Shown piece after piece: positions 6,346 through 26,874 of a DNA stretch of 27,227 bases (positions within the stretch are counted from its first letter, which is position 1; every line of letters begins with the position of its first letter). The stretch covers positions 1 through 27,227 of the forward strand of contig JACPBX010000019.1 in assembly GCA_016180085.1 (NCBI GenBank), read 5' to 3'. The stretch is from Candidatus Woesearchaeota archaeon (GTDB taxonomy: Archaea > Nanobdellota > Nanobdellia > Woesearchaeales > UBA10216). The position numbers and the translations under genes are program-made. Under the pieces are notes generated by a model. It was not told the origin of the DNA. It worked only from the letters and a program-made list of their open reading frames with translations, and did not search any database.

Positions 6346-6465
6346 GCCCCTGTAGCTCAGTGGCCAGAGCGACTGCTTCGTATGACCCTTTTGCAAGCAA
6401 AAGGTTCAATCCAAAAACGATGAAGAAAAAGCAGTAGGCCGCGAGTTCAACTCTCGCCAGGGGCT
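6346..6465 (+). tRNA. tRNA-Thr(CGT) with a 37/38 intron
   Basis: Acceptor GCCCCTG/CAGGGGC, D-arm GCTC/GAGC, anticodon stem ACTGC/GCAGT, loop TT-CGT-A|A, T-arm GCGAG-TTCAACT-CTCGC, discriminator U73. CCA not encoded. ATTTAAAAA box at 6311-6319. Confidence 0.95.
6383..6429 (+). other. tRNA-Thr intron (47 nt) made largely of the repeat element
   Basis: TGACCCTTTTGCAAGCAAAAGGTTCAATCCAAAAACGATGAAGAAAA. Removal restores a 7-nt loop. The central helix TTCG:AGAA has 3 of 4 pairs. Confidence 0.85.
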
Positions 6466-6564
6466 TTCTCCCCCGAAATCCGATAGTTTTTTATAGTCAA
6501 AAGGGCAAAAAAGGCTTAAAATAGTTAAAAAAAGCCTCGCTTGAGGCTCCAAGAGGTGTTGCGT

Positions 6565-6807
6565 ATGTGCATGGGAGGAGGAAACTGCAGTGATGGCGTA
6601 TGTGCGAAGTGCCACGCTGTTATGAAAGTGGTGCTTGGTGCATTGGTGCTGCTCAACATTTACGTTTGGCCAAAATGGACAGGCGGAGTTGACCAGTGGC
6701 TGGCGTTTTTCGCAGTGCTGTTCATCATAAAGGGCGCAATCAAATTTGTCATGCCCAACTGCTCTCACTGCAAGCCTGAGGCAACGGCTGGCAAGAAAGG
6801 CAAGTAA
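6565..6807 (+). CDS. Small two-TM membrane protein with Cys-rich termini
   Basis: SD-like GAGGTG 6 nt before ATG 6565. MCMGGGNCSDGVCAKCH...two hydrophobic segments...CSHCK. Confidence 0.75.
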   Translation: MCMGGGNCSDGVCAKCHAVMKVVLGALVLLNIYVWPKWTGGVDQWLAFFAVLFIIKGAIKFVMPNCSHCKPEATAGKKGK

Positions 6808-6851
6808 GAGCAAGCAAGACAGTAGATTAGCAGAATAAGAAGCGAAAGAAG

Positions 6852-6872
6852 GGGCCCAAAAAGGCCCGTTTC
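6852..6872 (+). terminator. GC hairpin followed by a short T tract
   Basis: GGGCC-CAAAAA-GGCCC-GTTTC, 45 nt after the preceding stop codon. Confidence 0.4.
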
Positions 6873-6903
6873 TAAGCTGATTTACTACCCCTTAATGACA
6901 AGA

Positions 6904-6920
6904 AGCGAAAAGTATTTATA
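6904..6920 (+). promoter_or_regulatory. BRE-TATA promoter upstream of tfe
   Basis: AGCGAAAAG-TATTTATA fits the archaeal BRE + TATA pattern. Confidence 0.55.
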
Positions 6921-7054
6921 CTAGTTCGCACAGGAATACAGGTTAAGGGGGTTTAGTGGCTGTCTTAAACGATAGCCAGCGTAATCCGCTTTTGCTGCCA
7001 GTTTTTAAGGCAGCAACAAGGTTCAAAAAATAGGAAAAACAGGGAAAGAAAAAG

Positions 7055-7633
7055 ATGAGACAAATCTTGAAAGCTCCGAGGATGAGGATGCATGGAATGC
7101 AGAAGGCAAGGTCAAGGTCTCTTGCCACAGCAGTGAGGAAGAGCGGCCATCTTCAGACTGTTGCCGAGGTTGTTGGCCAGGAAGCTGTGCCGATTGTGCA
7201 GTACCTGAAGGGCAAGAAGAACATTTCCGAGTTCAAGATAGCTGAGAGCATAAAGGCAGAGGTTAATTCTGTGAGAAAGATGCTTTACGCGATGCAGACA
7301 AGCAACCTTGTCAGCTACTACAGGAAGAAGGACAGGCAGAAGGGCTGGTACATCAGCTACTGGACTTTGAAGCCTGAGTCTTTTGACTATCTCTCTCTTG
7401 CGACAAAGAGGCAGAGGCTTCAGCAGCTTAGGGAGCGCCTCCATAAGGAAGAGGCAAACGAAGGCCTGTTCTACATTTGCCCGAGCCTGTGCGTGAGGCT
7501 TGAGTTTGACAAGGCTGCCGAGATAAGCTTCAAGTGCCCTGAGTGCGGTACCATGCTGCAGCATCAGGACAACATCAAGACCATAGAGCAGTTAAGGTCA
7601 AGGATAAGCGAGCTTGAGTCCAAAAAGAACTAG
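7055..7633 (+). CDS. tfe: Transcription factor E (TFIIE-alpha homolog)
   Basis: Winged helix (ISEFKIAESIK...VRKMLY...LVSYYRKKDRQKGWYISYW) followed by a zinc ribbon (FYICPSLC...FKCPECG). Start uncertain (7055 or 7097). Confidence 0.93.
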   Translation: MRQILKAPRMRMHGMQKARSRSLATAVRKSGHLQTVAEVVGQEAVPIVQYLKGKKNISEFKIAESIKAEVNSVRKMLYAMQTSNLVSYYRKKDRQKGWYISYWTLKPESFDYLSLATKRQRLQQLRERLHKEEANEGLFYICPSLCVRLEFDKAAEISFKCPECGTMLQHQDNIKTIEQLRSRISELESKKN

Positions 7634-7656
7634 GTTGAGTGGCATTAGTGGCAACA

Positions 7657-9060
7657 TCATCTGCTTCCTTCTGCAGCCACAACCGCTGCTGTGTTACCAT
7701 TGAGTATGTGCAGCTTCTCAGCGTGCTTCAGCGTGTTCTGGAACCAGAGCAGGGCTGCTATGCCGGCTACCAAATGGCCAGTCATTATGCCGAGCCACAC
7801 CCCTTTTAATCCCAGCTGCAGTGGGAATGCCAGGGTGTATGCGAGTGCTATCATCAGCCCGAAAGCAAGTGATGTTATTGCCAGTACCTGCCACGCCTTG
7901 CCCAGACCCTGAAACGAGCTTGCGGCTATAAGCCTCAGGCCGAGGAAGCCGTATGCCAGTGCTACTATGCTGAAGTATTGCCTGCCGTAAGCGATGACAG
8001 CAGCGTCTTTCGTGAACACGGACAGCAGGATTGGGGAGGCAAGCAGGAGGGTTATGCCGACTGCTTCCATAAACATGAAAGCGCTGATTGAGGAGAAGAT
8101 TGAGGCGAGCCTTGCCCTGCCATACTGCCTTGCGCCAATGTTCTGGCCTATGACCGATAGCGTTGCAAGCCCGACTGCAAAGGCAGGCAGGACTGCCACT
8201 GATTCAAGCCTGAAGGCAACGCCCAGCCCTGCAAGCGCCAGGCTTCCGAATGAGGCAACGATTTTGTTAAGGAAGAAAATGCCAACCGCCAGAGTGCCTT
8301 GTGATGCTGCTGTCGGGATGCTGACTGCAAGTATGCCCCTGACAATTTCATTTGAGTAAACGAGCTTCTTGAACCTTAGCTTTACCAGCGCCTTTCCGCT
8401 GAAGAGGTGTGAGTACGAGTAAAGCAAACCGAGGGACTGTGATATTATGGTAGCGATTGCCGCGCCTTTAACGCCAAGCTGGGGGAACGGCCCGTAGCCA
8501 AAGATGAACAGGGGATCGAGTATTATGTTCGCTATGTTTGCAATTACGAGCGCTTTCATCGGTGTTTTCGCATCGCCCTCTCCCTGGAGCATTGCATTCG
8601 CTACGTTGGCAAGGAAGAACGCGCCACTTCCAAGGTAAATGACAGACAGGTAGTCCTTCATGAAGGCTGCAACCGTGGCTGACACGCCCAGGAAGCTGAC
8701 AAGGGGCTTTATCGTGAAAAAGCCTATGGCTAGGGTGATGACAGACAGGGCTGCTGCGATGAGCAAGCCGTTTTCGGCAATAACGTTAACCTTTTCAAAA
8801 TTCTTGGCGCCTATGCTTCTTGCCACAAAGGAGCTGACGCCTATGCCCATGCCTGAGTTAAGAGCTATGATTATGAAGAAGATTGGGAACGAGGCAGCGA
8901 CAGCAGCAATGGCTTCAGGCCCAAGCCTTCCAACGAAGAACGTGTCAACCAGCGTGAAGAGGTTGTGCATGAACATCGCAACGAGCATGGGGGCTGCGAG
9001 GAAGATGACGTGCTTCCTGATGCTTCCGGTTGTGAGGTCTTTTTTTGGCTTAGGCTCCAT
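7657..9060 (-). CDS. MATE family efflux transporter
   Basis: DLTTGSI...LAAPM...LFTLVDTFFVGRLG...ALAA; QGEGDAKTPM...NIILDPLFIFG...LGVKGAAIAT; two-fold internal repeat, ~12 TM. Start moved to ATG 9060. Confidence 0.93.
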   Translation of the reverse strand: MEPKPKKDLTTGSIRKHVIFLAAPMLVAMFMHNLFTLVDTFFVGRLGPEAIAAVAASFPIFFIIIALNSGMGIGVSSFVARSIGAKNFEKVNVIAENGLLIAAALSVITLAIGFFTIKPLVSFLGVSATVAAFMKDYLSVIYLGSGAFFLANVANAMLQGEGDAKTPMKALVIANIANIILDPLFIFGYGPFPQLGVKGAAIATIISQSLGLLYSYSHLFSGKALVKLRFKKLVYSNEIVRGILAVSIPTAASQGTLAVGIFFLNKIVASFGSLALAGLGVAFRLESVAVLPAFAVGLATLSVIGQNIGARQYGRARLASIFSSISAFMFMEAVGITLLLASPILLSVFTKDAAVIAYGRQYFSIVALAYGFLGLRLIAASSFQGLGKAWQVLAITSLAFGLMIALAYTLAFPLQLGLKGVWLGIMTGHLVAGIAALLWFQNTLKHAEKLHILNGNTAAVVAAEGSR

Positions 9061-9127
9061 TTGAATCAGCAAAGGCTGCGATAAAGAACTTGTTTATAAG
9101 GTTACTGGCGTAGCTTTGCAACAATAA

Positions 9128-10372
9128 TCACTCATACCTTAATGCCTGCACGGGGTTGAGCCTTGCTGCCTGCCGTGCAGGGGCAACCCCCGACACGCAG
9201 CCCAGCACGAATGAGAATGCCAGCGCACCCAGGATGAGGAAGGGGCTTGTTGACGCCTTCAGCAGCTCTGAGCCGAGAAAGTTTGTTGCTGCGAATTCAA
9301 CCATCTTGCCCATTCCGAGGCCGAACGCGATTCCTACAAGTCCTCCCACAAGGCCATAAAGCCCTGATTCAATCAGGAAAAGGAGCATCACGTCGCGGTT
9401 TTTTGCGCCAACCGCCTTCATTATGCCTATCTCCCTTGTCCGCTCGAGCACTGCAGTGTACATGGTATTCATTACGCCAATTGAGCCGACAACGAGCGAG
9501 ATTGCGGCTATCCCTATTATTACGGCCTGAACTATGCTTAATATGGTTGTAAAGCTTGCGAACAGGTCTTCAGAAGTCTGCACCTGGAAATCCTCGTTGC
9601 CCTCTTCCTGGCCCCTGTCCTTCCGTATCACTTCCTTTATTCTTGCAGCCACATCTACCGGCCTGAAGCCAGCCTCTACCTCAGCACTTACCAGGGCATA
9701 CTCGTCTTTGTTCCCGTATATTTCCCATGCGGTTTCAATCGGTATTATGACTGAAACGTCGTTAGCTGGGTCCCCAAGCTTTCTCCTTATGCCCACGACC
9801 TTGAACTCCTCACCCTCAACTTTTACCGTATCGCCTGGCTTGATTGTCCTGCCCATCAGCTTTTCGTCTGTCGAGTAGGAGTTCCCGACTATCGCCGCCT
9901 TTTTTTCCCCTTTCCTGAACTCCCTGCCCTGCGAAACCGAAAACCTCGTGCCGAAAACCCTTCTGCTCTCTTCATCAGCAGGAATCCCTATGCCCAAAGA
10001 GTATTTTGTCCTGCCGTTGAACTCGAACTTGCTCGTCTTGAACACAAAACCCCCGGCTTCTTTCACGCCCCTTGCCCTCTTTATCAGGTCAATGTCGTGC
10101 TGGGTGACCTTAGACAAGCCAGAGCTGCTGCCTGGAGGCCCGAAGAAGGCGCTGCCAGGCTGGACTATCACCCTGTCGGCTCCGATTGTGCTGAACTGCT
10201 CCTTTATCGCTGCCTCCATGCCCTTGCTTATTGATATCAGGCCTACTACTGCAGCGATGCCAACAAATATTCCGAGCATTGTCAGCCAGCTTCTCAGCTT
10301 CCTGTTCTTCATGCCCTTAACTGCCAGTAAGAAGTAATCCTTTAGCTTGATGAAAAGCTTCTGCATCTGCAT
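9128..10372 (-). CDS. ABC transporter permease, MacB/FtsX family
   Basis: RKLRSWLTMLGIFVGIAAV; periplasmic core; ISLVVGSIGVMNTMYTAVLERTREIGIMKAVGA; PARQAARLNPVQALRYE. Confidence 0.93.
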   Translation of the reverse strand: MQMQKLFIKLKDYFLLAVKGMKNRKLRSWLTMLGIFVGIAAVVGLISISKGMEAAIKEQFSTIGADRVIVQPGSAFFGPPGSSSGLSKVTQHDIDLIKRARGVKEAGGFVFKTSKFEFNGRTKYSLGIGIPADEESRRVFGTRFSVSQGREFRKGEKKAAIVGNSYSTDEKLMGRTIKPGDTVKVEGEEFKVVGIRRKLGDPANDVSVIIPIETAWEIYGNKDEYALVSAEVEAGFRPVDVAARIKEVIRKDRGQEEGNEDFQVQTSEDLFASFTTILSIVQAVIIGIAAISLVVGSIGVMNTMYTAVLERTREIGIMKAVGAKNRDVMLLFLIESGLYGLVGGLVGIAFGLGMGKMVEFAATNFLGSELLKASTSPFLILGALAFSFVLGCVSGVAPARQAARLNPVQALRYE

Positions 10373-10432
10373 TTCCCCTGTATATCCCCCGCATCTTCCC
10401 TGCACTACATACGCTTCGCGGCTTTGCCTGCT

Positions 10433-11692
10433 TTACTTCTTTTTTCTGAGCTTCCTGTAAGCAAGAACGCCAACCACAACTATTGCTACAGTAATGAGTA
10501 TGCCCTTGCCGTTGCTCTTTTCAAGCCCGAACTTTCCAAGCTCAGAGGTGGTGTAAACCCTTACCGGAACAGTAATCGTCTGCTGGTGCGGCTCGTTCAG
10601 CGCATCCCTGTATTCGAGGCTTAGCGTAAGCTGTGCTGGCTTTTTGAAGAAAACATCGTAACTTACTGTTTCTGAATCTCCCGAGTCTAGGTCTCCAACA
10701 TAAGCAGACTCAGGGGAGAGTATCTCGTAGTTTTCTGATTTGGCCAGAGCTGATGACAGGAATTTCACGTCCGAAAGGCCGCTGTTTATGATTTCTATCG
10801 TGACTTTGCGCTTTGCATTTAGCTTCAGCGGGTCTGAGCCAATGGCAGCAGCAGCCAGCTGCGGCTCTGAACTGACTAGTATGCCAAAGGACTGCCCGCT
10901 GATAGTGTAGTTCCTTCCTGACGTGTCAGAGTATGTTATGAGCAGGGGCATCCTGTACAGCGCGCTTTTTGCATCGGGGCTCGTGATTACGGAAAAGGCT
11001 GCCTTTGAAGTGCCTTTTTGCTTGATGAGCGGTATTATTGCCTCGTTTGTGGAGCCGTAGGCTGAAAACGTGTCTGTGAGGTTCAGCCTTACCCTGACGT
11101 TCACTGCATCACCGGTTCCGATGTTTGTGACTTCAAGTTCCAGACTGGAAGGCTTGCCGGGAACCATGGTTTCCGGCTTAGCAACAACAGACGTTACCGC
11201 AAGGGGCAAATCCCTCCTGCCTACGCTTACATTGAAACTGTCAACCACTGTCCAGCCCTGCGATGCCGTCTTATACCTTAGCGCGATTGGGTTTATGCCT
11301 GAGCCTGCTGCGACATCAATTGTCAGGAAGAACCTTACTATGACCGCATCCTTTCCTTTCTGCCTCCCGAAAAGGTTGCCGACAGATTTTGTTTTCTCGC
11401 TTTCATCAACCGAGAACGGGAACCTTGGCAGAAGCTCAACAGTAACGCCGTCAGCGGGCATTGTGCCAATGTTCTCGACCTTGAACTTCAGCTCAAGCCG
11501 CTCACCGGGCATGACAGGCTCAGGGTCCTGGTTGACAAAGCTTATTGTCACGAAAGCCGAATCAGAGACAGAGTCGTCAGTCCCAGCACTCACTGCTGTT
11601 GCATTTGTTAAAACTGCTGCAGCCGCGATAAAAACCAGGAAAACACTCAATGCGGCAAATACCGCTGCAGGAGGAATGTTCAGCTTAGTCAT
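10433..11692 (-). CDS. COG1361 / S-layer-family secreted protein with Ig-like repeats and a C-terminal TM anchor
   Basis: N-terminal hydrophobic signal, QDPEPVMPGE..ELKFKVENIG, repeated beta-rich units, C-terminal TM plus RKLRKKK. Sits between the ABC ATPase and the MacB permease, a familiar archaeal triad. Confidence 0.8.
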   Translation of the reverse strand: MTKLNIPPAAVFAALSVFLVFIAAAAVLTNATAVSAGTDDSVSDSAFVTISFVNQDPEPVMPGERLELKFKVENIGTMPADGVTVELLPRFPFSVDESEKTKSVGNLFGRQKGKDAVIVRFFLTIDVAAGSGINPIALRYKTASQGWTVVDSFNVSVGRRDLPLAVTSVVAKPETMVPGKPSSLELEVTNIGTGDAVNVRVRLNLTDTFSAYGSTNEAIIPLIKQKGTSKAAFSVITSPDAKSALYRMPLLITYSDTSGRNYTISGQSFGILVSSEPQLAAAAIGSDPLKLNAKRKVTIEIINSGLSDVKFLSSALAKSENYEILSPESAYVGDLDSGDSETVSYDVFFKKPAQLTLSLEYRDALNEPHQQTITVPVRVYTTSELGKFGLEKSNGKGILITVAIVVVGVLAYRKLRKKK

Positions 11693-11715
11693 TGCAGCCA
11701 CACCAGCTCTTTAGT

Positions 11716-12399
11716 TCAGTTCTTTTTTATCTTGATTATGGTCCCGTCCTTTATATAGGCTATGGTTTCAGCTTCGCCTGCAATCCTGTCATCGTGGGTT
11801 ATCACCACAACGGTTTTGCCTTTGTCGTGGAGCTTTTTCAGCATCCCAAAGATCTTCCTGCCTGTGCCGCTGTCGAGGTTTCCGGTTGGCTCGTCAGCCA
11901 GTATCACTTCGGGGTCGTTTGCCAGTGCCCTTGCTATTGCAACCCTCTGCTGCTGCCCTCCTGAGAGCTGGCTGGGGCGGTGGCCTTTCCTGTTAAGAAG
12001 CTCAACCTCGCCTAGCAGCTCGACAGCCTTCTTTTCCCTTTCATCCTCAGATTTTCCCTGGAAAATCATTGGCAGCATTATGTTTTCCATTGCCGTGAGC
12101 GTTGGCACCAGGTTGAACTGCTGGAAGATAAAGCCAACAGTTTTTCCCCGCATCTCGGCAAGCTCGTCTTCCGAGAGCGTGCTTACGTTCCTGCCCTGTA
12201 TGTAAACAGAGCCCCTGTCAGGCGCGTCCAGTGCCCCGATAATATGCATCGCCGTAGACTTCCCGCTTCCAGATGGGCCCTGTATTGCAAAGAACTCGCC
12301 TTTTTTTATTTCCAGGGAAGCACCGCGCAGGGCGTTTATGGTTTCGTCGCCCATCCTGTAGGTCTTCCACACGTTCTCAAGCTTCACAGCAGCAGCCAT
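11716..12399 (-). CDS. ABC transporter ATP-binding protein, LolD/MacB family
   Basis: Walker [11 protein letters not shown]-loop GFIFQQFNL, signature [15 protein letters not shown], Walker [13 protein letters not shown]-loop ITHD. ATG 12399 lies ~24 nt after TTTAAATA. Confidence 0.96.
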
Positions 12400-12476
12400 C
12401 AAACAAAATCCTGAAGTTTGCATTATTTAAAGTTTCAGCAAAACCTATAAATACGCCACGGGTTGCCATGCTTGAA

Positions 12477-13118
12477 ATGGCTTTACTGGCAATACGCACC
12501 ATAGTAAAGGAAAAGGACAAGGACAGCGGGAAGAAATGGTTTGCTGTATTTGTCGGGGTTATTATGCTGATGAGCGTGGCAGGCTTTGTTTTCTCCTTTA
12601 ACCCATCAGCACAGGGCAGCAATTTCCGTTATGGCGACCTGACGTTCAGGCAGACGCAGCAGGGATTCTTCGCCACAGAGGTAAATGGAAGGCAGGTTGA
12701 TTTCTTCTACAGGCCCGAGGACGTTTCGGATATCGACGTGCCTGGCTCTGCAGTTGAAAGGCTGACGGGAAGCAGGGTTGTTTACATCACTTATTACTGG
12801 AACAGCACGCTGGCTGAGGGCATGGCGCTTCTGCAGTTCGACGCTGCAAACCTGCTGGACTCAGTGCACAAAGTTTTCGCCCAGGCTGCATCAACAACAG
12901 CGAATCCTTTTAATCTTCCTCTTGTAACATGCGGTAATTCCACGAGCTTCATCCCTGTGCTGCTCTTTCAGGAAGCAAATAACACAGCAATATCCGTAGA
13001 TTCTGAAAACCCTGACTGCATTGTTTTGAGCGCCTCATCTGAGTCAGGGTTCGCAAGGGCAGCTGACAGGCTTAAGTACGCGCTTATATCAGGTGAGGCG
13101 GGCGGTGGCCGGGAATGA
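12477..13118 (+). CDS. Single-TM exported hypothetical protein (paralog 1)
   Basis: TATAAATA at 12446-12453 favours ATG 12477. TM WFAVFVGVIMLMSVAGFVF; many N-x-S/T sequons; C-terminal TC...C...RAADRL. Confidence 0.75.
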   Translation: MALLAIRTIVKEKDKDSGKKWFAVFVGVIMLMSVAGFVFSFNPSAQGSNFRYGDLTFRQTQQGFFATEVNGRQVDFFYRPEDVSDIDVPGSAVERLTGSRVVYITYYWNSTLAEGMALLQFDAANLLDSVHKVFAQAASTTANPFNLPLVTCGNSTSFIPVLLFQEANNTAISVDSENPDCIVLSASSESGFARAADRLKYALISGEAGGGRE

Positions 13119-13861
13119 GCAACAAAATCTCCGTAGAAGACCGCGCGGAAAAGGAAGGAGGCAAGGGAAAGCAGCAGGCATGGCAAAAGCCTGAGCCGCA
13201 GCAAATGCAACAACACCAGCAGCGCGAGCAAGCAAGCCACCATAGACACCATGAAAGGAACATAGTCCTGGCCTTCGCGGCTGTAGGGGTGGTTGTTATT
13301 CTTGGATTCTTCATGGCAAGATACGCGATAAACCTGGTCAGTGGCGATGGCACAGTTGATAATGCGGAAGAAAGCCGCTATTACAACGGGTTTGAGTTTG
13401 TAACAGATGGCAGCACGTGGTTCACTCAGTGGAAAGGGGACGAACTTACTTATAACCTACAGCTCAGGCACCCACCTTGGGAAGTTGAGAATGTGACTGT
13501 GAAAGGGCAAGTTGACTGGCGTTTTCAGATGCCTGGGATTTTCATAACTTTTGACCCGCCAGAGAACTTTAGTAGGCAGAACTCCTTTCTATTTCTCGCA
13601 AGTGTTGACCTGACAAGCAATTTGGACACAGTTCTCGACAGGACGGTTATTGCTGCCTGCACAGCCAACCTCACCGAAGCCTGCACCCAGAGGCCAATTG
13701 TCACGTGCTCAACAAACGCCTCAGTGATTTACCTCAAGGTCTCAAACGAAACAGGCGTCTTCCTTGACGGCAACTGCGCAACAATCCAGGGCTACGAAAA
13801 AGGCTTAACAAGAGCTGCCGACAAGGTAATTTACCAGTGGCTTAAAATAATCAGGAAATAG
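13115..13861 (+). CDS. Single-TM exported hypothetical protein (paralog 2)
   Basis: ATGA overlap with the upstream stop. TM IVLAFAAVGVVVILGFF; YNGFEF; TC...C...RAADKV, like the upstream gene. Confidence 0.8.
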   Translation: MSNKISVEDRAEKEGGKGKQQAWQKPEPQQMQQHQQREQASHHRHHERNIVLAFAAVGVVVILGFFMARYAINLVSGDGTVDNAEESRYYNGFEFVTDGSTWFTQWKGDELTYNLQLRHPPWEVENVTVKGQVDWRFQMPGIFITFDPPENFSRQNSFLFLASVDLTSNLDTVLDRTVIAACTANLTEACTQRPIVTCSTNASVIYLKVSNETGVFLDGNCATIQGYEKGLTRAADKVIYQWLKIIRK

Positions 13862-14369
13862 AATGTGGGTTCGCTGAGACATACTGCGACAAAGTGTCTT
13901 GCGAGCCGGAAAGTGACAGAACAGCCGAAGATAATTCTTCTTTAGCTCCTTTAGATTCTTTATCAGCTGATTCTTTCACCTGCCTTTCCAGGCGTTCAAG
14001 GTGTGAGATTAAGGTTGTCAGTCGGCTCCCGTAACGGTTAAGTAGGTCCAATAAAGGAACATGCGGCGAGAGGGGCGAATGAAGTAACCCTGAAATGCGT
14101 GCAGAAGAGCGCACCATGCCCAGTATTTCCTGCCTGTTATTTCTGTAAAAATCGCCAGGGACATATGCCCATGCATCCTCTGGTTCTGATCTTGCCATCT
14201 CGTAAAAATCAGTGGCAAAAGCATCTACGGCCTGGGCGAAGCCATCAATCAGGGGCTGAAGCTCAAATGCAGTAAATAAAGGAGAACCTGCAAGCAATTG
14301 TTCAACCTGCATCTCCAGGCTCTGTGGCCCTTTTCCTTCCGCCGTTACCCCTGCCAGTCCCTCTGCCAT
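13851..14369 (-). CDS. Hypothetical helical protein
   Basis: Track ORF 13851-14426. ATG 14369 follows GGGAAAGGAA and lies 20 nt after the upstream stop. No family recognised. Confidence 0.6.
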   Translation of the reverse strand: MAEGLAGVTAEGKGPQSLEMQVEQLLAGSPLFTAFELQPLIDGFAQAVDAFATDFYEMARSEPEDAWAYVPGDFYRNNRQEILGMVRSSARISGLLHSPLSPHVPLLDLLNRYGSRLTTLISHLERLERQVKESADKESKGAKEELSSAVLSLSGSQDTLSQYVSANPHSIS

Positions 14370-18883: not shown

Positions 18884-20587
18884 ATGGCAGCGAGGAGCAA
18901 GCTTAGGAGGATAGTGACGAATCCCAGGGTTGTAATTGTAATCCTGGCAGTTCTCATATCGGTTTACTCAACAGGCATCCCATTCTCGCTCGGGAGGGAG
19001 GGGGTTGTTGTCAGGTCTATTGAAAAAGACAGCGCTGCTTACGATGCAGGCATTCGGAGCAGTGAAAGCGGCACTGGCCTGGCTTCGAAGGAAAGAATAA
19101 TAGCCATTGACGGCAATAAGATAAAGACCCTGATAGACTATGCCGGTGCTGTTTCCGAGCTGGAGATAAACCAGACCCTGCTTGTCGAGACAGACAAGGC
19201 ATTTTACAGGGTTGTGGTGAAGCCAGAGATTAACATCAGGGTATTGCCTGAACTGGAAGAAAAAACCGTGGTTGTCAATGCAACTACGAATGAAACGGCT
19301 AAGGTTCTTGTCAACAAAACCGTGGAGGAGATTCTGGGTGTTGACGATGACATAGGGTTGAGGGTTGCCAATGCCCCAAAAACAAACCTGCGCCTTGGCC
19401 TTGACCTCCAAGGAGGGGCAAGGGTAATGCTCAAGCCAGAGACAGAGCTGCCAAGGGAGGACCTTGAGCTTGTCATAGCCAACATGAACAGGAGGCTGAA
19501 CCTGTTTGGGCTGAGCGATGTTGTTGTGAGGGACGCATCTGACCTCTCAGGCAGCATGTTCATAATCGTTGAGGTTGCCGGAGCCAACGAGGAAGACGTG
19601 AGGCAGCTGATAGCCAGGCAGGGGAAGTTTGAAGCCAAGATAGCCAATGAGACTGTTTTCACAGGCAATGAAGTGACTGATGTGTGCAGGAGCGCGACCT
19701 GCTCAGGCATTGATTTCCAGTCAGGAGGGTGTTTCCAGGGTTCATCTTCTGAAACAGTTTGCAGGTTTTATTTTACAATCTCACTAAGCCAGGAGGCAGC
19801 TGCAAAGCAGGCGGCTGCAACAGGAAAGCTTGCTATTGTAGGCGATTACCTCAGCCAGCCTCTGCAGCTGTTCCTGGATGACGAGCTTGTTGACGAGCTT
19901 CAGATAGGCAAGGAGCTCAAGGGCAATGCTGTTACCGGAATCAGCATATCAGGCAGCGGCTCGGGCTCAGGCAGGAAGGCTGCAACAGCCAATGCCATAA
20001 ACAACATGAAAAGGCTCCAGACAATTCTAATTACCGGCTCATTGCCAGTCAAGCTTGAGATTGTCCGAACCGATTCCATCTCGCCAATACTTGGCGAGCA
20101 GTTCCTGAGAAACGCACTTAAAGTCGGGCTGATTGCAATCCTTTTTGTTGTCGGAATACTGCTGTTCGCTTACAGGAAGCTTCAGATTGCCATTCCTGTA
20201 ATGTGCACAAGTCTCCTTGAAATCTTTATAATGCTGGGCTTTGCCTCGCTCCTGCCTTTCCTGAGCTGGACCATTGACCTTGCAGCCATTGCAGGCATAA
20301 TAGCAGCTGTCGGAACAGGCGTTAACGACCAAATAATCATCACTGACGAAGCCCTGAAAGGCGAGCAGAGGAGGATATTCTCATGGAAGGAAAAGCTAAA
20401 GTCAGCGTTCGCGGTAATATTCGGAGCCTACCTGACGCTGGTTGTTGCAATGCTGCCACTGTTCGCGGTTGGCGCAGGAATGCTCAGGGGCTTTGCCCTC
20501 ACCACAATCATCGGCATGTCTGTAGGCGTTTTCATAACCAGGCCTGCATACGCAAAGGTTATTGAGATACTGATGGAAAGGGATTAG
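18884..20587 (+). CDS. secD: Protein translocase subunit SecD
   Basis: LRLGLDLQGG, GKFEAKI, GSLPVKL, ISPILG, IDLAAIAGIIAAVGTGVNDQIIITDE, GFALTTIIG...ITRPAY. Confidence 0.95.
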   Translation: MAARSKLRRIVTNPRVVIVILAVLISVYSTGIPFSLGREGVVVRSIEKDSAAYDAGIRSSESGTGLASKERIIAIDGNKIKTLIDYAGAVSELEINQTLLVETDKAFYRVVVKPEINIRVLPELEEKTVVVNATTNETAKVLVNKTVEEILGVDDDIGLRVANAPKTNLRLGLDLQGGARVMLKPETELPREDLELVIANMNRRLNLFGLSDVVVRDASDLSGSMFIIVEVAGANEEDVRQLIARQGKFEAKIANETVFTGNEVTDVCRSATCSGIDFQSGGCFQGSSSETVCRFYFTISLSQEAAAKQAAATGKLAIVGDYLSQPLQLFLDDELVDELQIGKELKGNAVTGISISGSGSGSGRKAATANAINNMKRLQTILITGSLPVKLEIVRTDSISPILGEQFLRNALKVGLIAILFVVGILLFAYRKLQIAIPVMCTSLLEIFIMLGFASLLPFLSWTIDLAAIAGIIAAVGTGVNDQIIITDEALKGEQRRIFSWKEKLKSAFAVIFGAYLTLVVAMLPLFAVGAGMLRGFALTTIIGMSVGVFITRPAYAKVIEILMERD

Positions 20588-21446
20588 GCGGTTTCCGGCA
20601 AATCAGCGAGGATGGCTGCCACCCGGTATTTGTTCCGTATAAATGTTGTAAGATAAGATAATTTGCGCCGTGCCGCATGCCGCTTAGAAGACTTTTGACT
20701 TCTTGGACTTTATGAGCACAATCCCCTATGACCATGAGGCCTTCAGGTTTGAGCATTTCATGCAGGTCATAGACTATTGATGTCCACATCTCATCTGCAT
20801 TGCACAGCACATTATTGCAAATCACCATTTCAAAGCTTGACGCTATCCGCTTCTGTAGCAGCGGTGCCGCATCATGGATAACAGTTATCCGGCTTTTTAC
20901 ATCTTGGCCAAGAGGAAGACGCCAGGCTGTGGTTGGTGTCAAAAGGCGCCGAGCTTCAGTTGGCGTCAAATACGAAAAGGCCCTACTGATTCCGAGACGT
21001 CTGCCTACGGCCCTAATTTCCTCTCCCGAGAACTGCCGCGTTTGAGGATTGGTTTCAATTAAGCGTGCCAGATACCGATTGTGCCACTCGGTTTGGGATA
21101 CTGAATCATTATCATCAGAGTGCAATATGAGATTCTGTTGTGATGCAACTGCATCACAGACCTGTTCGTTACTATCGATAACAGTCAAGCGCCACTCAAG
21201 CCCTGCCCTTTGCATTAGCAGGGCAACTTCGAAAGGCTCGAAAGTTTGGAGAACATCACCGAATCCCTCATAATTTCCGTCAAAGTATTTGGTTGCAAAA
21301 GGGAGGTTAAGTCCTGCGCCCACAACAAGGGCGCCATATTCACTGCCTCTTTGAGCACTCAGAATTTCCTCAAGGGCCAGAAATGCCCTCGCATGTCTAG
21401 CAAAGTGGGTTTTTGTACCATGAGTGTCTAAATTATCAGAGTTCAT
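20559..21446 (-). CDS. Putative class I SAM-dependent methyltransferase, CheR-like
   Basis: LVVGAG...EPFEVALL...LTVIDSNEQV...FEMVICNNVL...LHEMLKPEGLMVIG parallels the CheR motifs EPYSLAM, ATDID, FDLIFCRNVL, LKPGGYLFLG. Confidence 0.6.
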   Translation of the reverse strand: MNSDNLDTHGTKTHFARHARAFLALEEILSAQRGSEYGALVVGAGLNLPFATKYFDGNYEGFGDVLQTFEPFEVALLMQRAGLEWRLTVIDSNEQVCDAVASQQNLILHSDDNDSVSQTEWHNRYLARLIETNPQTRQFSGEEIRAVGRRLGISRAFSYLTPTEARRLLTPTTAWRLPLGQDVKSRITVIHDAAPLLQKRIASSFEMVICNNVLCNADEMWTSIVYDLHEMLKPEGLMVIGDCAHKVQEVKSLLSGMRHGANYLILQHLYGTNTGWQPSSLICRKPPNPFPSVSQ

Positions 21447-21525
21447 CTGACAAGGGAAATCAGGCTCCCAATTTATTGTTTTCTGTCAATAGCTTTAAAA
21501 ACCTGCATCGGCAGCAACCTCGGGC

Positions 21526-22092
21526 ATGATAATCACCATCTCAGGCGTTCCAGGCTCCGGCAAGAGCACCGTAGCTAGATTGGTTGCGAGGAAGCTCGGC
21601 TTCAGGCACCACTCCGCAGGAGATTTCATGAGGGAGATTGCTGAAAAAAGAGGGGTTTCCCTGCTTGAGCTGGGAAGAATCGCAGAGAAGGACCGCAGCA
21701 TAGACAAGGAACTTGACGAAAGGACAATAAGGCTTGGCAAGGAAGAAGACGACTTTGTCATGGACTCAAGGCTTGCCTACTATTTCATTCCGCAGTCGTT
21801 CAAGGTTTTCCTTATGGTTGACGAAATGGCAGCCGCGAAGAGGATTTTCAGCGATATCAAGGGCAAAAAAATGGGCAGAAAAGTGGAGAAGGAAAGCACA
21901 ACCCTCGCTGCAACACTAGCCAGCATCCGCAAGAGGAAAAAGTCAGAGCGGCAGCGCTACAGGAAGTACTACGGCCTCAACCCTTACGACACGAAGCAGT
22001 ACGACCTGGTCATTGACACTACCAGAACAGCGATTGAAGATGTTGTGGAAAAGGTTGTTGAAGCGGTGAAGAAAAGCTGCATGTCGTGCTAA
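21526..22092 (+). CDS. cmk: Archaeal cytidylate kinase
   Basis: IITISGVPGSGKSTVA, SAGDFMREIA, IDKELD, VMDSRLA, ERQRYRKYYG, YDLVIDT. Confidence 0.93.
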   Translation: MIITISGVPGSGKSTVARLVARKLGFRHHSAGDFMREIAEKRGVSLLELGRIAEKDRSIDKELDERTIRLGKEEDDFVMDSRLAYYFIPQSFKVFLMVDEMAAAKRIFSDIKGKKMGRKVEKESTTLAATLASIRKRKKSERQRYRKYYGLNPYDTKQYDLVIDTTRTAIEDVVEKVVEAVKKSCMSC

Positions 22093-22149
22093 CGCCTTTG
22101 TGAAAAAAAACAAGAACTTTTTTAAACCCTCCAAATTTTCGGATTCTTT

Positions 22150-22872
22150 ATGGAGACAATAAAGGAAAACGACTTTGTTGAGCTTGATTATACTGGCAAG
22201 GTTGCCGAGACAGGAGAGGTTTTTGACACAACTTCTGCGGAAGTTGCCAAGGAAAAGGGCATCTTTGACGAGCGCGCAGCATACGGGCCAGCGGTTGTGT
22301 GCATTGGGAAGAGGCACCTTCTTATCGGCCTGGACAAGCAGCTTGTCGGAAAGGAGGTTGGAAAGAGCTACACGTTTAAGCTTCCGGTTGAGGAGGCTTT
22401 CGGAAGGAAAAACGCCAAGCTTATGCAGCTTGTTCCAACAGCGAAGTTCAGACAGCAGCAGCTTACCCCTTTCCCGGGTATGCAGGTTAACATTGACGGC
22501 ATAGTCGGCACGGTAAGGACCGTTACTGGGGGGAGAACGATTGTTGACTTCAACCACCCACTGTCGGGAAGGGAGCTTGAATACGCTGCCAGTGTTAAAA
22601 GGATTGTTACAGATGTTTCTGAAAAAGTCAGGGCAATACTCAGGCTCATAGGAATAAGCGTTAATGCTGTTGGCGTTTCTGTAAGTGATGGCAGCGCAGC
22701 GATAGAATTTCCGCAGGAGGCTCCTGCGCAGCTGAAAAAGGACATAGAGGAAAAGCTGAAGTCTGCCATAACTGAGCTGAAGGCCGTTTCTTTTACAGTA
22801 AAAGCGCCTGCTGCTCCTGCGACTGCAGCAATGGCAGCAGAACCGGCAGAAAAGCAAAAGCCGCTGCAGTAA
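22150..22872 (+). CDS. FKBP-type peptidyl-prolyl isomerase, long archaeal form
   Basis: DFVELDYTGK...GEVFDTT, GLDKQL, EAFGRKN, GGRTIVDFNHPLSG, plus the C-terminal domain of long archaeal FKBPs. Confidence 0.92.
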   Translation: METIKENDFVELDYTGKVAETGEVFDTTSAEVAKEKGIFDERAAYGPAVVCIGKRHLLIGLDKQLVGKEVGKSYTFKLPVEEAFGRKNAKLMQLVPTAKFRQQQLTPFPGMQVNIDGIVGTVRTVTGGRTIVDFNHPLSGRELEYAASVKRIVTDVSEKVRAILRLIGISVNAVGVSVSDGSAAIEFPQEAPAQLKKDIEEKLKSAITELKAVSFTVKAPAAPATAAMAAEPAEKQKPLQ

Positions 22873-23035
22873 GCGAAGAAAACCGTAACGGCAAAACGCG
22901 GCCAATTTTCGTCACTAAATAAAACAAAATTATTTTTTCACAAATTTTTTCTGAACGACAAAATATAAATAGTAGTAAGGGGGTTGAAAGGCTGGGTTTT
23001 TACGCTTTTACGCGTTTGCGAGGAGGGGCTAGTTT

Positions 23036-24130
23036 ATGGGGAGCGTTATACTTTCGACAAAAGATACAATAAGGTCATTAAGCAAGACCAACACTGCCGA
23101 TGCCGAGCTTGAGCAGCTCCTTTCAAAGCATCGCGCAACAATAAAGGTTGTTGGCTGCGGAGGAGCAGGCAACAACACAGTAACGAGGATTTCTGAAGTG
23201 GGCGTTGTGGGTGCTGAAACGATAGCCATAAACACAGACGCCCAGGACCTGCTTTACACAACTGCTGACAGGAAGATCCTGATTGGCAAGGAGCTCACCC
23301 ACGGCTTCGGGGCAGGCTCTGACCCGAAGATTGGCGAGGAAGCTGCAAAGGAAACCGAGCACGAGATTAAGGAAACACTGACAGGCGCTGACATGGTGTT
23401 TGTCACGTGCGGCCTTGGCGGGGGAACGGGCACCGGCTCGGCTCCTGTGGTTGCGGACATCGCAAAAAAGCTGGGCTGCCTTGTTGTTGGGGTTGTAACG
23501 CTTCCGTTTTCCATGGAAGGGAACAGGAGGTATGACAATGCCATGGCAGGGCTTGAGAGGCTTGAGGAAATCACCGACACTTTGATTGTCATCCCGAACG
23601 ACAAGCTTCTTGAGCTTGCTCCGGACCTTCCGCTGCTAACAGCCTTCAAGGTTGCTGATGAGATACTCACAAATGCCGTCAAGGGCATAGCTGAGCTTGT
23701 CACAAAGCCCGGCCTGATCAACCTCGACTTTGCAGACATCAGGGCTGTTATGGGAGGCGGTGGGGTTGCCCTCATTGGGGTTGGCGAATCTGATTCGGAG
23801 AACAGGGCTGTTGAGGCTGTTGAGAAAGCCATTAACAACCCGCTGCTTGACGTTGACACTTCAGGCGCATCAGGGGCATTAATCAACATCTCAGGCGGCC
23901 CTGACATGACGCTTGAAGAGGCAAGGAAGGTTGTTGAGACCGTCAGCCAAAAGCTGGATGCCGATGCCAGAGTCATCTGGGGAGCCCAAATCTATGAGGA
24001 CCTTGCAAGGACTGTAAGGGCAATGCTGATAGTCACCGGTGTAAAGTCTGCCCAGATTCTGGGCGCCAAGAAGCTCGCTGTCCAGAAAAAAGAGATGGAA
24101 AACGAGCTCGGAATAGAGTTTGTGGACTGA
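23036..24130 (+). CDS. ftsZ: Cell division protein FtsZ (FtsZ1-type by synteny)
   Basis: [50 protein letters not shown]. Followed by secE-spt5-rpl11. Confidence 0.98.
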
Positions 24131-24258
24131 GCAAAAACCGCAACCTTTAAAAAAGAGCCCTTACTCTTGTTCACATAGCGATTTTTAGATATGTTTTTTA
24201 AGTCAGGCGTTAAAAACGGCGTTAGTTAGAGTGTTAAAGAGGCATCACGAGGTAACAA

Positions 24259-24444
24259 ATGGTTATTGCAATTTTTACAAAATTAAAGAGTTTTGCAGGC
24301 GAGTGCAGAAGGGTTTTGACTGTGACGAAGAAGCCAACGAAAGCAGAGCTTATTACTGTTGTCAAGGTCTCTGGCATAGGCATTGCCCTGATAGGCTTAA
24401 TCGGCTTTGCCCTTAACATGATTAACAAAGTGATTTTCCAGTAA
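24259..24444 (+). CDS. secE: Protein translocase SecE / Sec61-gamma
   Basis: ECRRVLTVTKKPT..E...VVKVSGIGIALIGLIGF; position in the ftsZ-secE-spt5 cluster. Confidence 0.93.
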   Translation: MVIAIFTKLKSFAGECRRVLTVTKKPTKAELITVVKVSGIGIALIGLIGFALNMINKVIFQ

Positions 24445-24473
24445 TTTTTCAAGAAATGATTGGTTGATGCTGA

Positions 24474-25139
24474 ATGGCTGATGCTGCTGATGAAAATGCT
24501 GAAAAGCAGGATGATGAGCTGGACCTGAACATAGAGGAACAATCACCTGATGAGCTTCTTGAGGCATCGCTGAAAAAAGACCAGGAAGCGGCTGAAAAAG
24601 AGGCAACTGCCGAGAAAAAAGAAGAGGTTAAAGGGCAGAAAGAAGCTGAGACCGCAAGGTCTCCCATCTTTGCCCTCCGCACAACCGCAAATCGGGAAGA
24701 GCAGGTAATGGACTTCATAACCTCCAATGCAAAGAAGAAAAAGCTTGGCGTTTACTCCCTTATTCACCCTCATGGAATGAGGGGCTACATTTTTATGGAG
24801 GCAAAGGACAGGCAAGATGCTGAGCAGGCAGCCTTCAGGGTCCCTTATGCCAGGGGCCTCCTTGACAAGGAAGTCTCATATGAGGAGATTGAGCACATGC
24901 TCGAGCCGGGTAAAAAAGTTGAGGTCAACATCCAGAAGGGCGACATTGTTGAGATAATCAGCGGCGCTGCCTTCAAGCATTCACAGGCAAAGGTCACCAG
25001 AATTGACAAGACAAAGGAGGAAGTAGTTGTTGAGCTTCTCGAGTCAGCCGTCCCAATCCCGATTACCCTGAAGCTGGATGCTGTAAAGGTAATAAGGAGG
25101 GAATCAGAGGAAGGCGAGGCAGCCCATCAGGAGGAGTGA
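24474..25139 (+). CDS. spt5: Transcription elongation factor Spt5 (NusG) with an acidic N-terminal extension
   Basis: NGN domain (IFALRTTANREEQV...MRGYIFME) and KOW (GDIVEIISG...AKVTRIDKTKEEVVVEL...PIPITL). Confidence 0.95.
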   Translation: MADAADENAEKQDDELDLNIEEQSPDELLEASLKKDQEAAEKEATAEKKEEVKGQKEAETARSPIFALRTTANREEQVMDFITSNAKKKKLGVYSLIHPHGMRGYIFMEAKDRQDAEQAAFRVPYARGLLDKEVSYEEIEHMLEPGKKVEVNIQKGDIVEIISGAAFKHSQAKVTRIDKTKEEVVVELLESAVPIPITLKLDAVKVIRRESEEGEAAHQEE

Positions 25140-25189
25140 GCCCACACCCATAGAAAGCTATTTAAAGAGCCTGCCTGTCCCAAATTCTC

Positions 25190-25987
25190 ATGCCAACCCA
25201 GACAGTAGAAGCGCTTGTTGAAGGCGGAAAAGCATCTGCAGCCCCGCCGCTTGGACCAGCACTTGGCCCGTTGGGTGTTAATGTAGGCCAAGTTGTTTCT
25301 GAGATAAACAAAAAGACAACTCTGTTTGCGGGAATGCAGGTCCCGGTAAAGGTTTCTGTTGACACTTCCACTAAGGCTTTCACCGTAGCCATAGGCACTC
25401 CCCCTTCCAGTGCGCTTGTCAAAAAGGAAGCGGGCATAGAGAAGGGCTCAAGCAACCCTCTGATGGACAAAGTGGCTGATTTAAGGATAGAGCAGATAAT
25501 CAAAATCGCCAAAATGAAGGAGTCACAGCTTCTTGGCAAGGGGCTGAAGTCAAAAGTCAAGGAAGTCATCGGAACGTGCAACTCCATGGGAATACTGGTT
25601 GAGGGAAGGCCTGCTTTTGAAGTCATTAAAATGATTGACCAGGGCAACTTCACTGAGGAAATAACCCAAGAGAAGACAGAGCTTACAGCAGCCGAGCTCA
25701 AGGAGCTTGAAGAGGAGAGGAAGAAGCTCGCTGAGGAAATCGAAAAGAGAAGGGGCGAATTCCTTGCCAAGGCCAAGCTCATTATTGACTCTATGGCAGG
25801 AAAGGCTCGTGGCGAAATAAAGGCAAAGCTTGTTGAGGCAGCCATACCAACCAAGATTATTGAGGAACTCCTCCCTGTAACAGCAGCAGCCGGAGCAGCT
25901 GGTGCCCCTGCTGAGGCAGGAAAGGCCGCTGCGCAGCCTGGCGCGGCACAACCGGCAGCTGCAGCAAAGAAGGAAGAAAAGAAATAA
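25190..25987 (+). CDS. rpl11: 50S ribosomal protein L11 (uL11) with a long C-terminal extension
   Basis: VEGGKASAAPPLGPALGPLGVN, GMQVPVKV, GTPPSSALVKKE, EVIGTCNSMGI. 265 aa, against roughly 160 for typical archaeal L11. Confidence 0.95.
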   Translation: MPTQTVEALVEGGKASAAPPLGPALGPLGVNVGQVVSEINKKTTLFAGMQVPVKVSVDTSTKAFTVAIGTPPSSALVKKEAGIEKGSSNPLMDKVADLRIEQIIKIAKMKESQLLGKGLKSKVKEVIGTCNSMGILVEGRPAFEVIKMIDQGNFTEEITQEKTELTAAELKELEEERKKLAEEIEKRRGEFLAKAKLIIDSMAGKARGEIKAKLVEAAIPTKIIEELLPVTAAAGAAGAPAEAGKAAAQPGAAQPAAAAKKEEKK

Positions 25988-25998
25988 GCGTGAACTGA

Positions 25999-26199
25999 AT
26001 GGGAAGGATAAAAACTCAGCTGACAAAAAGGGTGACAGAGCAGCTGCTCAGCAAATACCCAGGCCAGTTTAGCGAGGATTTCTCTGAAAACAAGCTTCTC
26101 GTTGCCAAGCACGTTTCAGTTTTTTCTGCAAAGCTCCGGAATACGGTGGCAGGCTACCTCACAAGGCTCGTAAAAGTAAGAAAGGCAAAGGGAATATAA
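25999..26199 (+). CDS. rps17e: 30S ribosomal protein S17e (eS17)
   Basis: MGRIKT...F..DF.ENK...S.KLRNTVAGY.T. Confidence 0.94.
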   Translation: MGRIKTQLTKRVTEQLLSKYPGQFSEDFSENKLLVAKHVSVFSAKLRNTVAGYLTRLVKVRKAKGI

Positions 26200-26480
26200 G
26201 GCCCATAATACCCTGCCAAAACTTATTAACATATTTCTCAGTCGTTTCCTGCAAAACACAATTCTTCCGCATTTTTACATAAAATTTCACAAAAAGCGCT
26301 GCTTATATTTTATAAATTTTATAATCACAAGTATCAAAAGCAGAATGAGTTATGCTTCTTTTTCTGAAAAATCAGCAAAAGATTATAGGAAGTATTATCC
26401 AAAAGCATATAAATAACCTCTGACTGACTTTTGTCATCGTTTTTTCAACGTTTGACAAAAAAAAGGTGGATTGATTTTTC

Positions 26481-26666
26481 ATGAAAGACCAAAGGTTCCT
26501 GCCGGCTGACAAGCGCGAACCCGTCGAGGATTATGACGATTATGCTGAGGAAAGTTCTGACGCTGATGAATTGTTTATCGGCAGTGAAGCCGAGGCGGAA
26601 GAGCTTCAAATGCTTGACCACAACGGCAAAAAAACGCAGAAGGACGTCCTTTACATTGCAAGCTGA
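26481..26666 (+). CDS. Small acidic hypothetical protein
   Basis: 61 aa, D/E-rich. TATAAATA at 26408-26415 and SD-like AAGGTGG upstream. Confidence 0.5.
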   Translation: MKDQRFLPADKREPVEDYDDYAEESSDADELFIGSEAEAEELQMLDHNGKKTQKDVLYIAS

Positions 26667-26764
26667 TTCTTTTTATTGTGCGCGGGATTGACATTCGCAG
26701 TTGCTGCGGCATTATCAGTTGAGAAAGTATTTTAAAGCAGTTAAAAGTTGCTTGTTCTTAGTTT

Positions 26765-26874
26765 GGGCTCGTGGTCTAACGGCATGACGCATCCTTCGCA
26801 TGACCCTTTTAAGAAAAGGGTCAATCCAAAAACGGAAAGGGATGAAACTGCGGGTTCGATTCCCGCCGAGTCCA
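26765..26874 (+). tRNA. tRNA-Ala(CGC) with a 37/38 intron
   Basis: Acceptor GGGCTCG/CGAGTCC with the G3:U70 alanine identity pair and A73; anticodon stem CATCC/GGATG; loop TT-CGC-A|G; T-arm GCGGG-TTCGATT-CCCGC. CCA not encoded. Confidence 0.95.
26801..26838 (+). other. tRNA-Ala intron (38 nt) made of the repeat element
   Basis: TGACCCTTTT-AAG-AAAAGGGTCA (perfect 10-bp hairpin)-ATCCAAAAA-CGGAAA. Central helix TTCG:CGGA with 3-nt bulges CA|T and AA|G. Confidence 0.88.

Follow-up and report, generated by a model that had tools for sequence, protein, structure and literature searches.

A small dispersed DNA repeat as the probable source of two tRNA introns in a Woesearchaeota genome

The window (the whole analysed stretch of 27,227 nt) comes from a 1-Mb metagenome-assembled genome (MAG) of the Woesearchaeota, in agreement with the original prediction of a DPANN host, and contains two tRNA genes interrupted by introns. 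The tRNA-Thr(CGT) gene lies on the plus strand at 6346-6465 (Rfam RF00005, 57.7 bits), with a 47-nt intron at 6383-6429; the tRNA-Ala(CGC) gene, also on the plus strand, lies at 26765-26874 (RF00005, 50.4 bits), with a 38-nt intron at 26801-26838. The anticodons are read from the stems, and the tRNA-Ala has the G3:U70 identity pair. Orthologues without an intron are found for Thr-CGT in the sister species G003 and for Ala-CGC in G003, G011, G013, G024 and L005. Removing the insert at 37/38 restores the cloverleaf, and since the empty orthologues fix the splice sites, both introns are located exactly at 37/38, as had been proposed.

As also described originally, the two introns start (at 6383 and 26801) with the same 10 nt, and their 21-nt blocks at 6399-6419 and 26814-26834 differ by one mismatch. 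The further claim that they are related by copying is borne out: both are copies of a repeat that is present about 50 times in this genome. The probability that the resemblance is a chance match, or one locus an assembly chimera, is next to nil. Short repeats do break metagenome assemblies, and contigs of the sequencing run end at the repeat, with none spanning the locus; nevertheless, the 21-nt block has no match (allowing one mismatch) in 300 simulated windows, and a chimera is excluded by the synteny of both loci in most sister species, where each keeps its own tRNA and its own introns. By sequence comparison, the Thr and Ala introns are not each other's closest copies and form no private pair; the Ala intron is closest to a Leu-GAG intron on another contig (C18), with which it is identical over 34 nt, and the Thr intron to a Glu-CTC intron on a third (C30).

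The Thr intron is made up of a repeat copy (hairpin and A tail, 6383-6417) and a 12-nt 3' part, the Ala intron of a copy with a perfect 10-bp hairpin and A tail (26801-26832) and 6 nt more. Segment 26833-26836 of the Ala intron forms four of four pairs with exon residues 26795-26798, as the central helix of a bulge-helix-bulge (BHB) motif with 3-nt bulges; in the Thr intron, 6424-6427 forms three of four pairs with 6377-6380 (a relaxed BHB). The h' helix scores 0/2 in both, which places them in the relaxed hBH form and not the strict BHB form. It is extremely unlikely that selection for a functional RNA within the intron (a splicing enhancer, or a box C/D guide like that of euryarchaeal tRNA-Trp) accounts for the shared sequence. 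A stable hairpin is indeed kept in all intron copies, but inspection finds neither box C nor box D in these two introns, their Rfam match is to tRNA only, the same sequence also occurs free and antisense, and its subtypes are swapped at one and the same site.

The repeat unit, of ~35 nt, consists of a hairpin of 11-13 bp, whose arms are a T-run and an A-run and whose loop varies, flanked on one side by a short A-rich tail; its end tag is ATC(C) or ACC followed by an A run. One end is sharp (the foot of the hairpin, usually 3' of a purine, consensus YCGCA) and the other variable. At the level of sequence, compensatory changes are shown to maintain the hairpin. In a set of 142 copies, which includes orthologous ones, making the counts non-independent, the first foot pair is T-A in 91, C-G in 27, A-T in 17 and G-C in 3, the second is G-C in 97 and A-T in 40, the 5' flank is A in 102, and the tail ends most often in CG (65). 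In 10 copies a duplicate of the flank follows the tail, against 2.7 expected (maximum 7); target duplications range from none to tens of nucleotides, and filler separates the duplication from the A tail. Two more copies lie in the window. One, free and on the plus strand at 6061-6143, has a second, double-hairpin repeat nested within it at 6079-6129, and its form without the nested part occurs on contigs from the same habitat; the other, at 26885-26972 on the minus strand, is a composite antisense copy between tRNA-Ala and the next gene. The original prediction had overlooked both, as well as the genome-wide nature of the shared sequence. A literature search that reached few subscription papers found no published description of the repeat.

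In this genome (83% complete; tRNA genes counted by hand) the repeat occupies 16 of the ~21 intron-bearing tRNA genes, at 37/38, at 59/60 and, in one case, in the anticodon stem. It had been suggested that C34 isoacceptors, being redundant with modified U34 tRNAs, tolerate insertion best, and elp3 does lie in the window (260-2002, minus strand). That suggestion does not survive the census: the 16 hosts comprise six C34, four U34 and six G34 tRNAs, and Glu-TTC, Gly-TCC, Pro-TGG and Arg-TCG, for which no other gene was found in the MAG, all carry the repeat. A special link to CGN anticodons holds in one respect only. The repeat is not confined to them, but because the CG of the tail pairs with C34-G35, introns of such tRNAs can be nearly pure repeat, as that of tRNA-Ala is. 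In 15 of these introns, 51 of 60 positions of the central H helix are paired, against a mean of 25.4 and a maximum of 38 in 20,000 null draws, three of the introns having only two of four pairs. The genome encodes a single EndA of 197 aa, at 45896-46486 on the minus strand of contig C40, and RtcB, by which the repeat-bearing introns are predicted to be spliced; the alpha4 EndAs of DPANN archaea are associated with more disrupted tRNAs (PMC5829648). Because of these repeat-type introns, ARAGORN finds no tRNA in the window by default and, with introns allowed, calls the two genes Phe and Leu.

About 35 of the ~50 copies lie outside introns, in both orientations, and transposition from one tRNA gene to another, as originally invoked, thus falls short of a full account. 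Nine of the non-intron copies adjoin tRNA ends (six antisense at the 5' end, three sense at the 3' end), where about 0.002 per copy would be expected by chance; the repeat is thus concentrated within and next to tRNA genes. Tail-to-tail inverted doublets and tandem arrays are found, and comparison with two sister species (G007 and G008) reveals empty and filled versions of intergenic sites. At 6040-6060 (plus strand) there remains a stub of seven codons, the former start of a small Cys-rich gene that the repeat has severed; the gene is uninterrupted in G007 and G003. Here the ORF restarts 3' of the repeat (6149-6307, plus strand) from a duplicate of the gene's start that has diverged. Between stubs and restarts, codon differences number 10, 6 and 25 at positions 1, 2 and 3 (p=3e-4); duplicated gene starts differ chiefly at synonymous sites. 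(Removal of the repeat as an mRNA intron was considered and rejected by eye, the inspected junctions showing no central helix.)

The original prediction had offered reverse splicing as one route of intron gain. In its fuller form, excised introns would be reverse-spliced into other RNAs by EndA and RtcB and copied back into DNA, and free copies would be stray retro-insertions. All 16 intron hairpins of this genome are sense and begin at, or at most 3 nt from, the 5' splice site, many free copies are likewise sense and immediately precede start codons, and an A-rich tail with variable duplications loosely recalls retro-insertion. What makes the RNA route very unlikely nonetheless is the set of six antisense copies at tRNA 5' ends, together with others, likewise antisense, within G008 tRNA introns, the filler between A tail and duplication, the two-to-one ratio of free to intron copies, and a search for reverse transcriptase (RVT_1) that found none in five genomes of the genus. 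Spread at the DNA level is favoured by the occurrence of copies in antisense orientation, by inverted doublets and tandem arrays, and by the target duplications. Our preferred reading, to which we assign a probability of about 0.74, is that a small, non-autonomous, REP-like DNA repeat, of which both introns are copies, spreads at the DNA level and creates or replaces BHB tRNA introns.

Sister species bear on the age and manner of this spread. Among ten of them there are empty, filled and replaced intron alleles; different subtypes of the repeat occupy orthologous sites, even in the closest sister (G005), and tRNA exon types have been swapped between species. The originally proposed recent gain is therefore upheld, as gain or turnover recent in the lineage, on the strength of the empty alleles and the subtypes differing at the same site. 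A CTP-synthase tree leaves the genus without resolution, and the intron-less state of G003 can be read as ancestral or as a loss. Across Nanoarchaeia the repeat is patchily distributed, often in or beside tRNA genes; in other families it constitutes introns in the D-loop, at 37/38 and in the T-loop, and tRNA ends are duplicated beside the insert. Two real copies reside on one viral contig; four other viral-contig matches lack the left arm and look like chance. It is unlikely that the hairpin is instead a functional motif of the host (for protein binding, termination or RNA processing), not mobile in itself, whose copies are homogenised and carried about by ordinary gene conversion, ectopic or between species, by way of conserved tRNA sequences. 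In favour of this, no cognate transposase was found; the T-runs on both strands could terminate archaeal transcription; no recombination anchors are more conserved than tRNA genes, and tRNA exon types are swapped between species; and the duplicated gene starts resemble two alleles. Conversion alone, however, leaves the flank consensus, arrivals in unrelated intergenic sites with a sharp foot junction, and insertions among the first codons of genes without explanation, and the repeat is absent from family-level relatives yet has burst to tens of copies in one genus.

No Y1_Tnp gene was found in this 83%-complete genome, a custom HMM built from 120 Woesearchaeota Y1 proteins also having been used, and no RAYT gene was found in it or in four sister genomes (MAGs 67-92% complete); the search for a mobilising enzyme, which also covered reverse transcriptase, thus came up empty. 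A single large integrase match looks like a housekeeping XerA-type gene. Several candidates were set aside. The Y1 gene of G005 has what appears to be a degenerate repeat before its start, but relatives of that gene have IS200-like ends of their own and lack the repeat; other Y1 loci in related genomes are not flanked by the repeat and have unrelated ends of their own. TnpB-only elements of G001 and G007 have copies nearby, but their ends too are unrelated. The rules of IS608 guide-target pairing give no consistent fit across subtypes.

On the DNA-level reading, insertions into tRNA genes would survive only at splice-compatible positions (37/38, 59/60, the D-loop or the anticodon stem), where the variable 3' part would complete a relaxed BHB, so that the host's alpha4-type EndA and RtcB could excise the insert; the repeat would in this way both make new introns and overwrite old ones. 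As to how it moves, the chances are somewhat below even that it does so in the form of single-stranded DNA, after cleavage at the hairpin foot by an enzyme of the HUH/Y1 type that acts in trans and is present only from time to time, that it takes some downstream flank along, and that recombination with a homologous allele, in many cases that of a related species, resolves its far end. Such carriage and recombination would account for duplicated starts that differ mainly at synonymous sites. A broader proposal, which we regard as doubtful, is of a coding-free micro-element with an as yet undescribed one-ended insertion pathway that targets the structured single-stranded DNA of tRNA genes and homes, with short flank, between co-occurring species, its tail being pre-adapted to complete a BHB and splicing erasing its cost.

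A 2014 review termed the mechanism of tRNA-intron transposition unknown (PMC4090602), and a 2026 census of Asgard archaea gives no general route by which introns arrive (bioRxiv 10.64898/2026.10.13.758758). One repeat, shared by so many intron-bearing genes and also living outside introns, would provide an identifiable DNA donor and a concrete source of new archaeal introns; it speaks for an intron-late route that operates on DNA and is filtered by the BHB rule, and the repeat-bearing loci are defined substrates for tests. A close archaeal precedent comes from Thermoproteales, whose transposed BHB tRNA introns (Fujishima et al. 2010, in the summaries of PMC4090602 and bioRxiv 10.64898/2026.10.13.758758) share with the present case the occurrence of similar introns across isotypes and positions in one genome. 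The present case differs in its reservoir of free copies in both orientations, doublets and arrays, of which those two summaries make no mention. The disrupted tRNA of Caldiarchaeum subterraneum (PMC3293823) likewise has a mobile element as proposed intron source and att-type duplication of tRNA ends beside the insert, the latter matched by the repeat in other families, but there a 1.8-kb recombinase-coding element affects one tRNA, whereas here a 35-nt non-coding repeat, with no enzyme attached, affects 16.

Among dispersed repeats, there is a close likeness to bacterial REP, REPIN and BIME sequences (PMC3733652), which are also short imperfect palindromes tagged at one end, with conserved pairing, tens of extragenic copies, a lineage-patchy distribution, and occurrence as singletons, inverted dimers, tandem arrays and nested composites; some REP families, moreover, have no dedicated transposase (PMC3733652). 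The tag, however, is neither GTAG nor CGTC (the definition in PMC3733652). The archaeal repeat also differs in its long and variable target duplications, and it may differ from REP/RAYT systems in having no repeat-flanked RAYT gene, none being found in the five genomes searched (MAGs 67-92% complete). REPs are not known to show strong tRNA targeting or removal by splicing. Rickettsia palindromic elements are, like the archaeal repeat, tolerated inside genes, including RNA genes; they are longer than ~35 nt and stay in the product, whereas splicing is predicted to remove the archaeal repeat from the tRNA. Three other classes do not fit: a MITE with terminal inverted repeats (the tail lies outside the hairpin, and the duplications are not of fixed length), a non-autonomous IS200/IS605 derivative (its ends are unrelated to those of the Y1 and TnpB elements examined) and a SINE-like or retrohoming element (no RVT_1 in five genomes, and antisense copies exist). 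There remain the introner-type, transposon-derived spliceosomal introns, in which, as outlined in PMC11282704, a small non-autonomous DNA element is likewise intronised by host splicing. In contrast to that outline, the archaeal repeat would rely on EndA and RtcB acting on a BHB in place of the spliceosome, and it lacks terminal inverted repeats with a fixed duplication. Were the micro-element proposal to hold, archaea would have their own equivalent of introner elements, and BHB introns in tRNA and rRNA a general mode of origin.

The genes for tRNA-Thr(CGT) (6346-6465) and tRNA-Ala(CGC) (26765-26874, with a G3:U70 pair), their anticodons read from the stems, carry introns at 6383-6429 and 26801-26838. 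The original prediction of near-identical introns inserted at 37/38 stands: intron-less orthologues (G003 for Thr; G003, G011, G013, G024 and L005 for Ala) fix the boundaries, the first 10 nt are the same, and a 21-nt block with one mismatch is common to both, a match that arose in none of 300 simulated windows. Sister species keep synteny at both loci, so neither is an assembly chimera of the other, and artefact as a general explanation deserves almost no credence. On copy-to-copy comparison the two introns are not each other's nearest relatives: the Ala intron equals the Leu-GAG intron over 34/34 nt, and that of Thr is closest to the Glu-CTC intron.

Each intron opens with a hairpin and then a brief A-rich tail; this unit is a repeat present in ~50 copies in the host genome (G000, a 1.0-Mb Woesearchaeota MAG, 83% complete), 37 of them simple and 14 nested or variant, the latter counted by hand. 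Among ~29 tRNA genes (hand census), 16 have an intron containing the repeat, in most cases at 37/38, in two at 59/60 and in one in the anticodon stem. The wobble position of these genes holds C six times, U four times and G six times, which defeats the proposal that redundant C34 isoacceptors are the favored hosts. Of ~35 copies outside introns, nine touch tRNA ends (expected, ~0.002 per copy), six antisense and head-to-head at the 5' end and three sense at the 3' end. The remainder are intergenic, on either strand, and frequently within a few bases of a downstream start codon; the window's free copies lie at 6061-6143 (plus strand) and 26885-26972 (minus strand). We put at roughly three in four the probability that the two introns stem from a non-autonomous repeat that spreads as DNA and is filtered by the requirement for a bulge-helix-bulge (BHB)-type motif. 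Two further tRNA loci of this genome may be recorded here. Contig C41 has different GTG-anticodon tRNA genes 1.3 kb apart (25647-25787 and 27067-27137), just one of them with an intron, which derives from the repeat. In tRNA-Leu(TAG) (C23:33529-33630), 14 nt of the T arm are duplicated in tandem, through either a genuine intron-like insertion or a slip of the assembly.

Over 142 copies in the genus, a set that includes orthologues, so that pair changes are not independent events, the outer hairpin pairs covary (T-A 91, C-G 27, A-T 17, G-C 3; at the second pair, G-C 97, A-T 40). Copies join their flank abruptly at the hairpin foot, usually 3' of a purine (A in 102/142; consensus YCGCA), and the end on the tail side is variable. 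Tail-to-tail doublets and tandem arrays occur, and a second, double-hairpin repeat is nested in some copies; the copy at 6061 is seen in its un-nested form in contigs from the same habitat. This second dispersed repeat (~50 nt; 6079-6129 in the window, and on G000 contigs C5, C7, C20, C22, C23, C29, C35, C36 and C39) also occurs free and within two tRNA-Gly introns.

Antisense copies, found at tRNA ends and also inside the Glu-CTC and Leu-GAG introns of sister species G008, together with the doublets and arrays, argue for spread at the level of DNA. They count against an RNA route, as does the failure to find a reverse transcriptase in five genomes searched, and we consider that route improbable; that the repeat is a guide RNA is less credible still. 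Movement of the DNA repeat might, tentatively, follow a one-ended pathway with an HUH enzyme acting in trans; no HUH/Y1 enzyme tied to the repeat was found in the genomes searched. TnpB-only elements (L301-L303, in G001 and G007) have short direct repeats at their left end, and hairpin-repeat copies often insert right beside this motif, also at C1:23536 and C40:35171 in G000.

Intergenic sites alternate between empty and filled among G000, G007 and G008. Ten copies (2.7 expected) have their 5' flank duplicated beyond the tail, typically where the repeat entered the first codons of a gene, leaving a stub and a second start (restart) downstream. Stub and restart differ 10/6/25 times at codon positions 1/2/3 (p=3e-4), a preponderance of third-position differences that a decaying stub would not show. 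In the window's small Cys-rich gene, the linker and the first 18 nt of the restart are identical in G000, G004 and G005, the stubs differ at synonymous sites, and the site is empty in G007 and G003; we infer that repeat and donor flank arrived laterally and recently in each resident allele.

Between the 3'-terminal bases of 15 G000 introns and exon nucleotides 32-35 (in the T-loop, their counterparts), 51/60 positions pair, where random post-tail sequence gives 25.4; central-helix pairing is 4/4 for Ala and 3/4 for Thr. The commonest tail end, CG, pairs with C34-G35, and this is why just 6 nt follow the repeat in the Ala intron. Neither intron has the intron-side h' helix, making these relaxed motifs. 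The genome encodes RtcB, the joining enzyme, and a single 197-aa EndA, the cutting enzyme; no second subunit was found in G000, and EndA is therefore probably of the alpha4 type, a type that has been associated in DPANN with a greater number of disrupted tRNA genes (PMC5829648). By these pairings the repeat-derived introns would be removed by splicing. The rtcB gene is itself broken in its conserved N-terminal motifs by one or two ~30-nt inserts in G007 (L406/L276:2590-2735), G005 (L403) and G003 (L404). By eye, the folds of the G007 inserts are those of canonical BHB mRNA introns; all these inserts are unrelated to the hairpin repeat and absent from G000 and G008, and a long in-frame stretch of intein-like appearance is inserted in the rtcB of G000.

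Both intron sites are occupied in all examined genus members except G003, which may have retained the empty state or lost its introns, and the Ala gene is intron-less in all three other family genera where readable. Subtype, length and 3' end vary between species, even in the closest sister, G005, which indicates a site refilled or converted, not simply inherited. A host motif spread by gene conversion is an unlikely origin. The tRNA-Thr(CGT) exons, compared between the window and L093, L094, L097, L098, L099 and L101, are of two types, discordant with the CTP-synthase tree: G000 has the type of G007 and G004, not that of its sister G005, a sign that tRNA genes may recombine between species.

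Searched with a strict pattern, 8 of 10 genus genomes yield 6-35 copies (the other two have variants) and 50 other relatives yield none; with looser patterns the repeat turns up in 13/300 other Woesearchaeales and 18/300 other Nanoarchaeia genomes, a few perhaps by chance. Outside the genus, too, it makes up tRNA introns, located in the D-loop, at 37/38 and in the T-loop, and is found with gene starts and tRNA 3' ends that are duplicated. One copy, the only such case (L373:1480-1540; G447, of another Nanoarchaeia order), interrupts an apparent 23S rRNA, probably as an rRNA intron. In other families (L374, L383, L388, L341, L010) it is in antisense orientation at the T-loop, next to a tRNA 3' end that is duplicated, or else is enclosed in a duplicated 5' half; the tRNA stays intact, an arrangement much like an att site. 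IMG/VR viral contig L363 has two copies (2634-2660 and 5918-5947), one just upstream of a tRNA cluster, and a virus is a possible vehicle between lineages.

No published description of the repeat was found in the literature searched, and a 2026 preprint (bioRxiv 10.64898/2026.10.13.758758) regards the arrival route of tRNA introns as still open. The repeat is not strictly a MITE (it has no fixed duplication), an IS200/IS605 derivative (its ends are unrelated to those of the elements examined) or a REP (its tag differs, and no RAYT, the REP-associated transposase, was found in G000 and four sister genomes). With REP sequences handled by HUH/Y1 enzymes (PMC3733652) it nevertheless has in common a hairpin tagged at one end, an abrupt junction and a brief consensus in the flank. 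The repeat works in like manner to introner elements and to intron transposition in Thermoproteales (PMC4090602).
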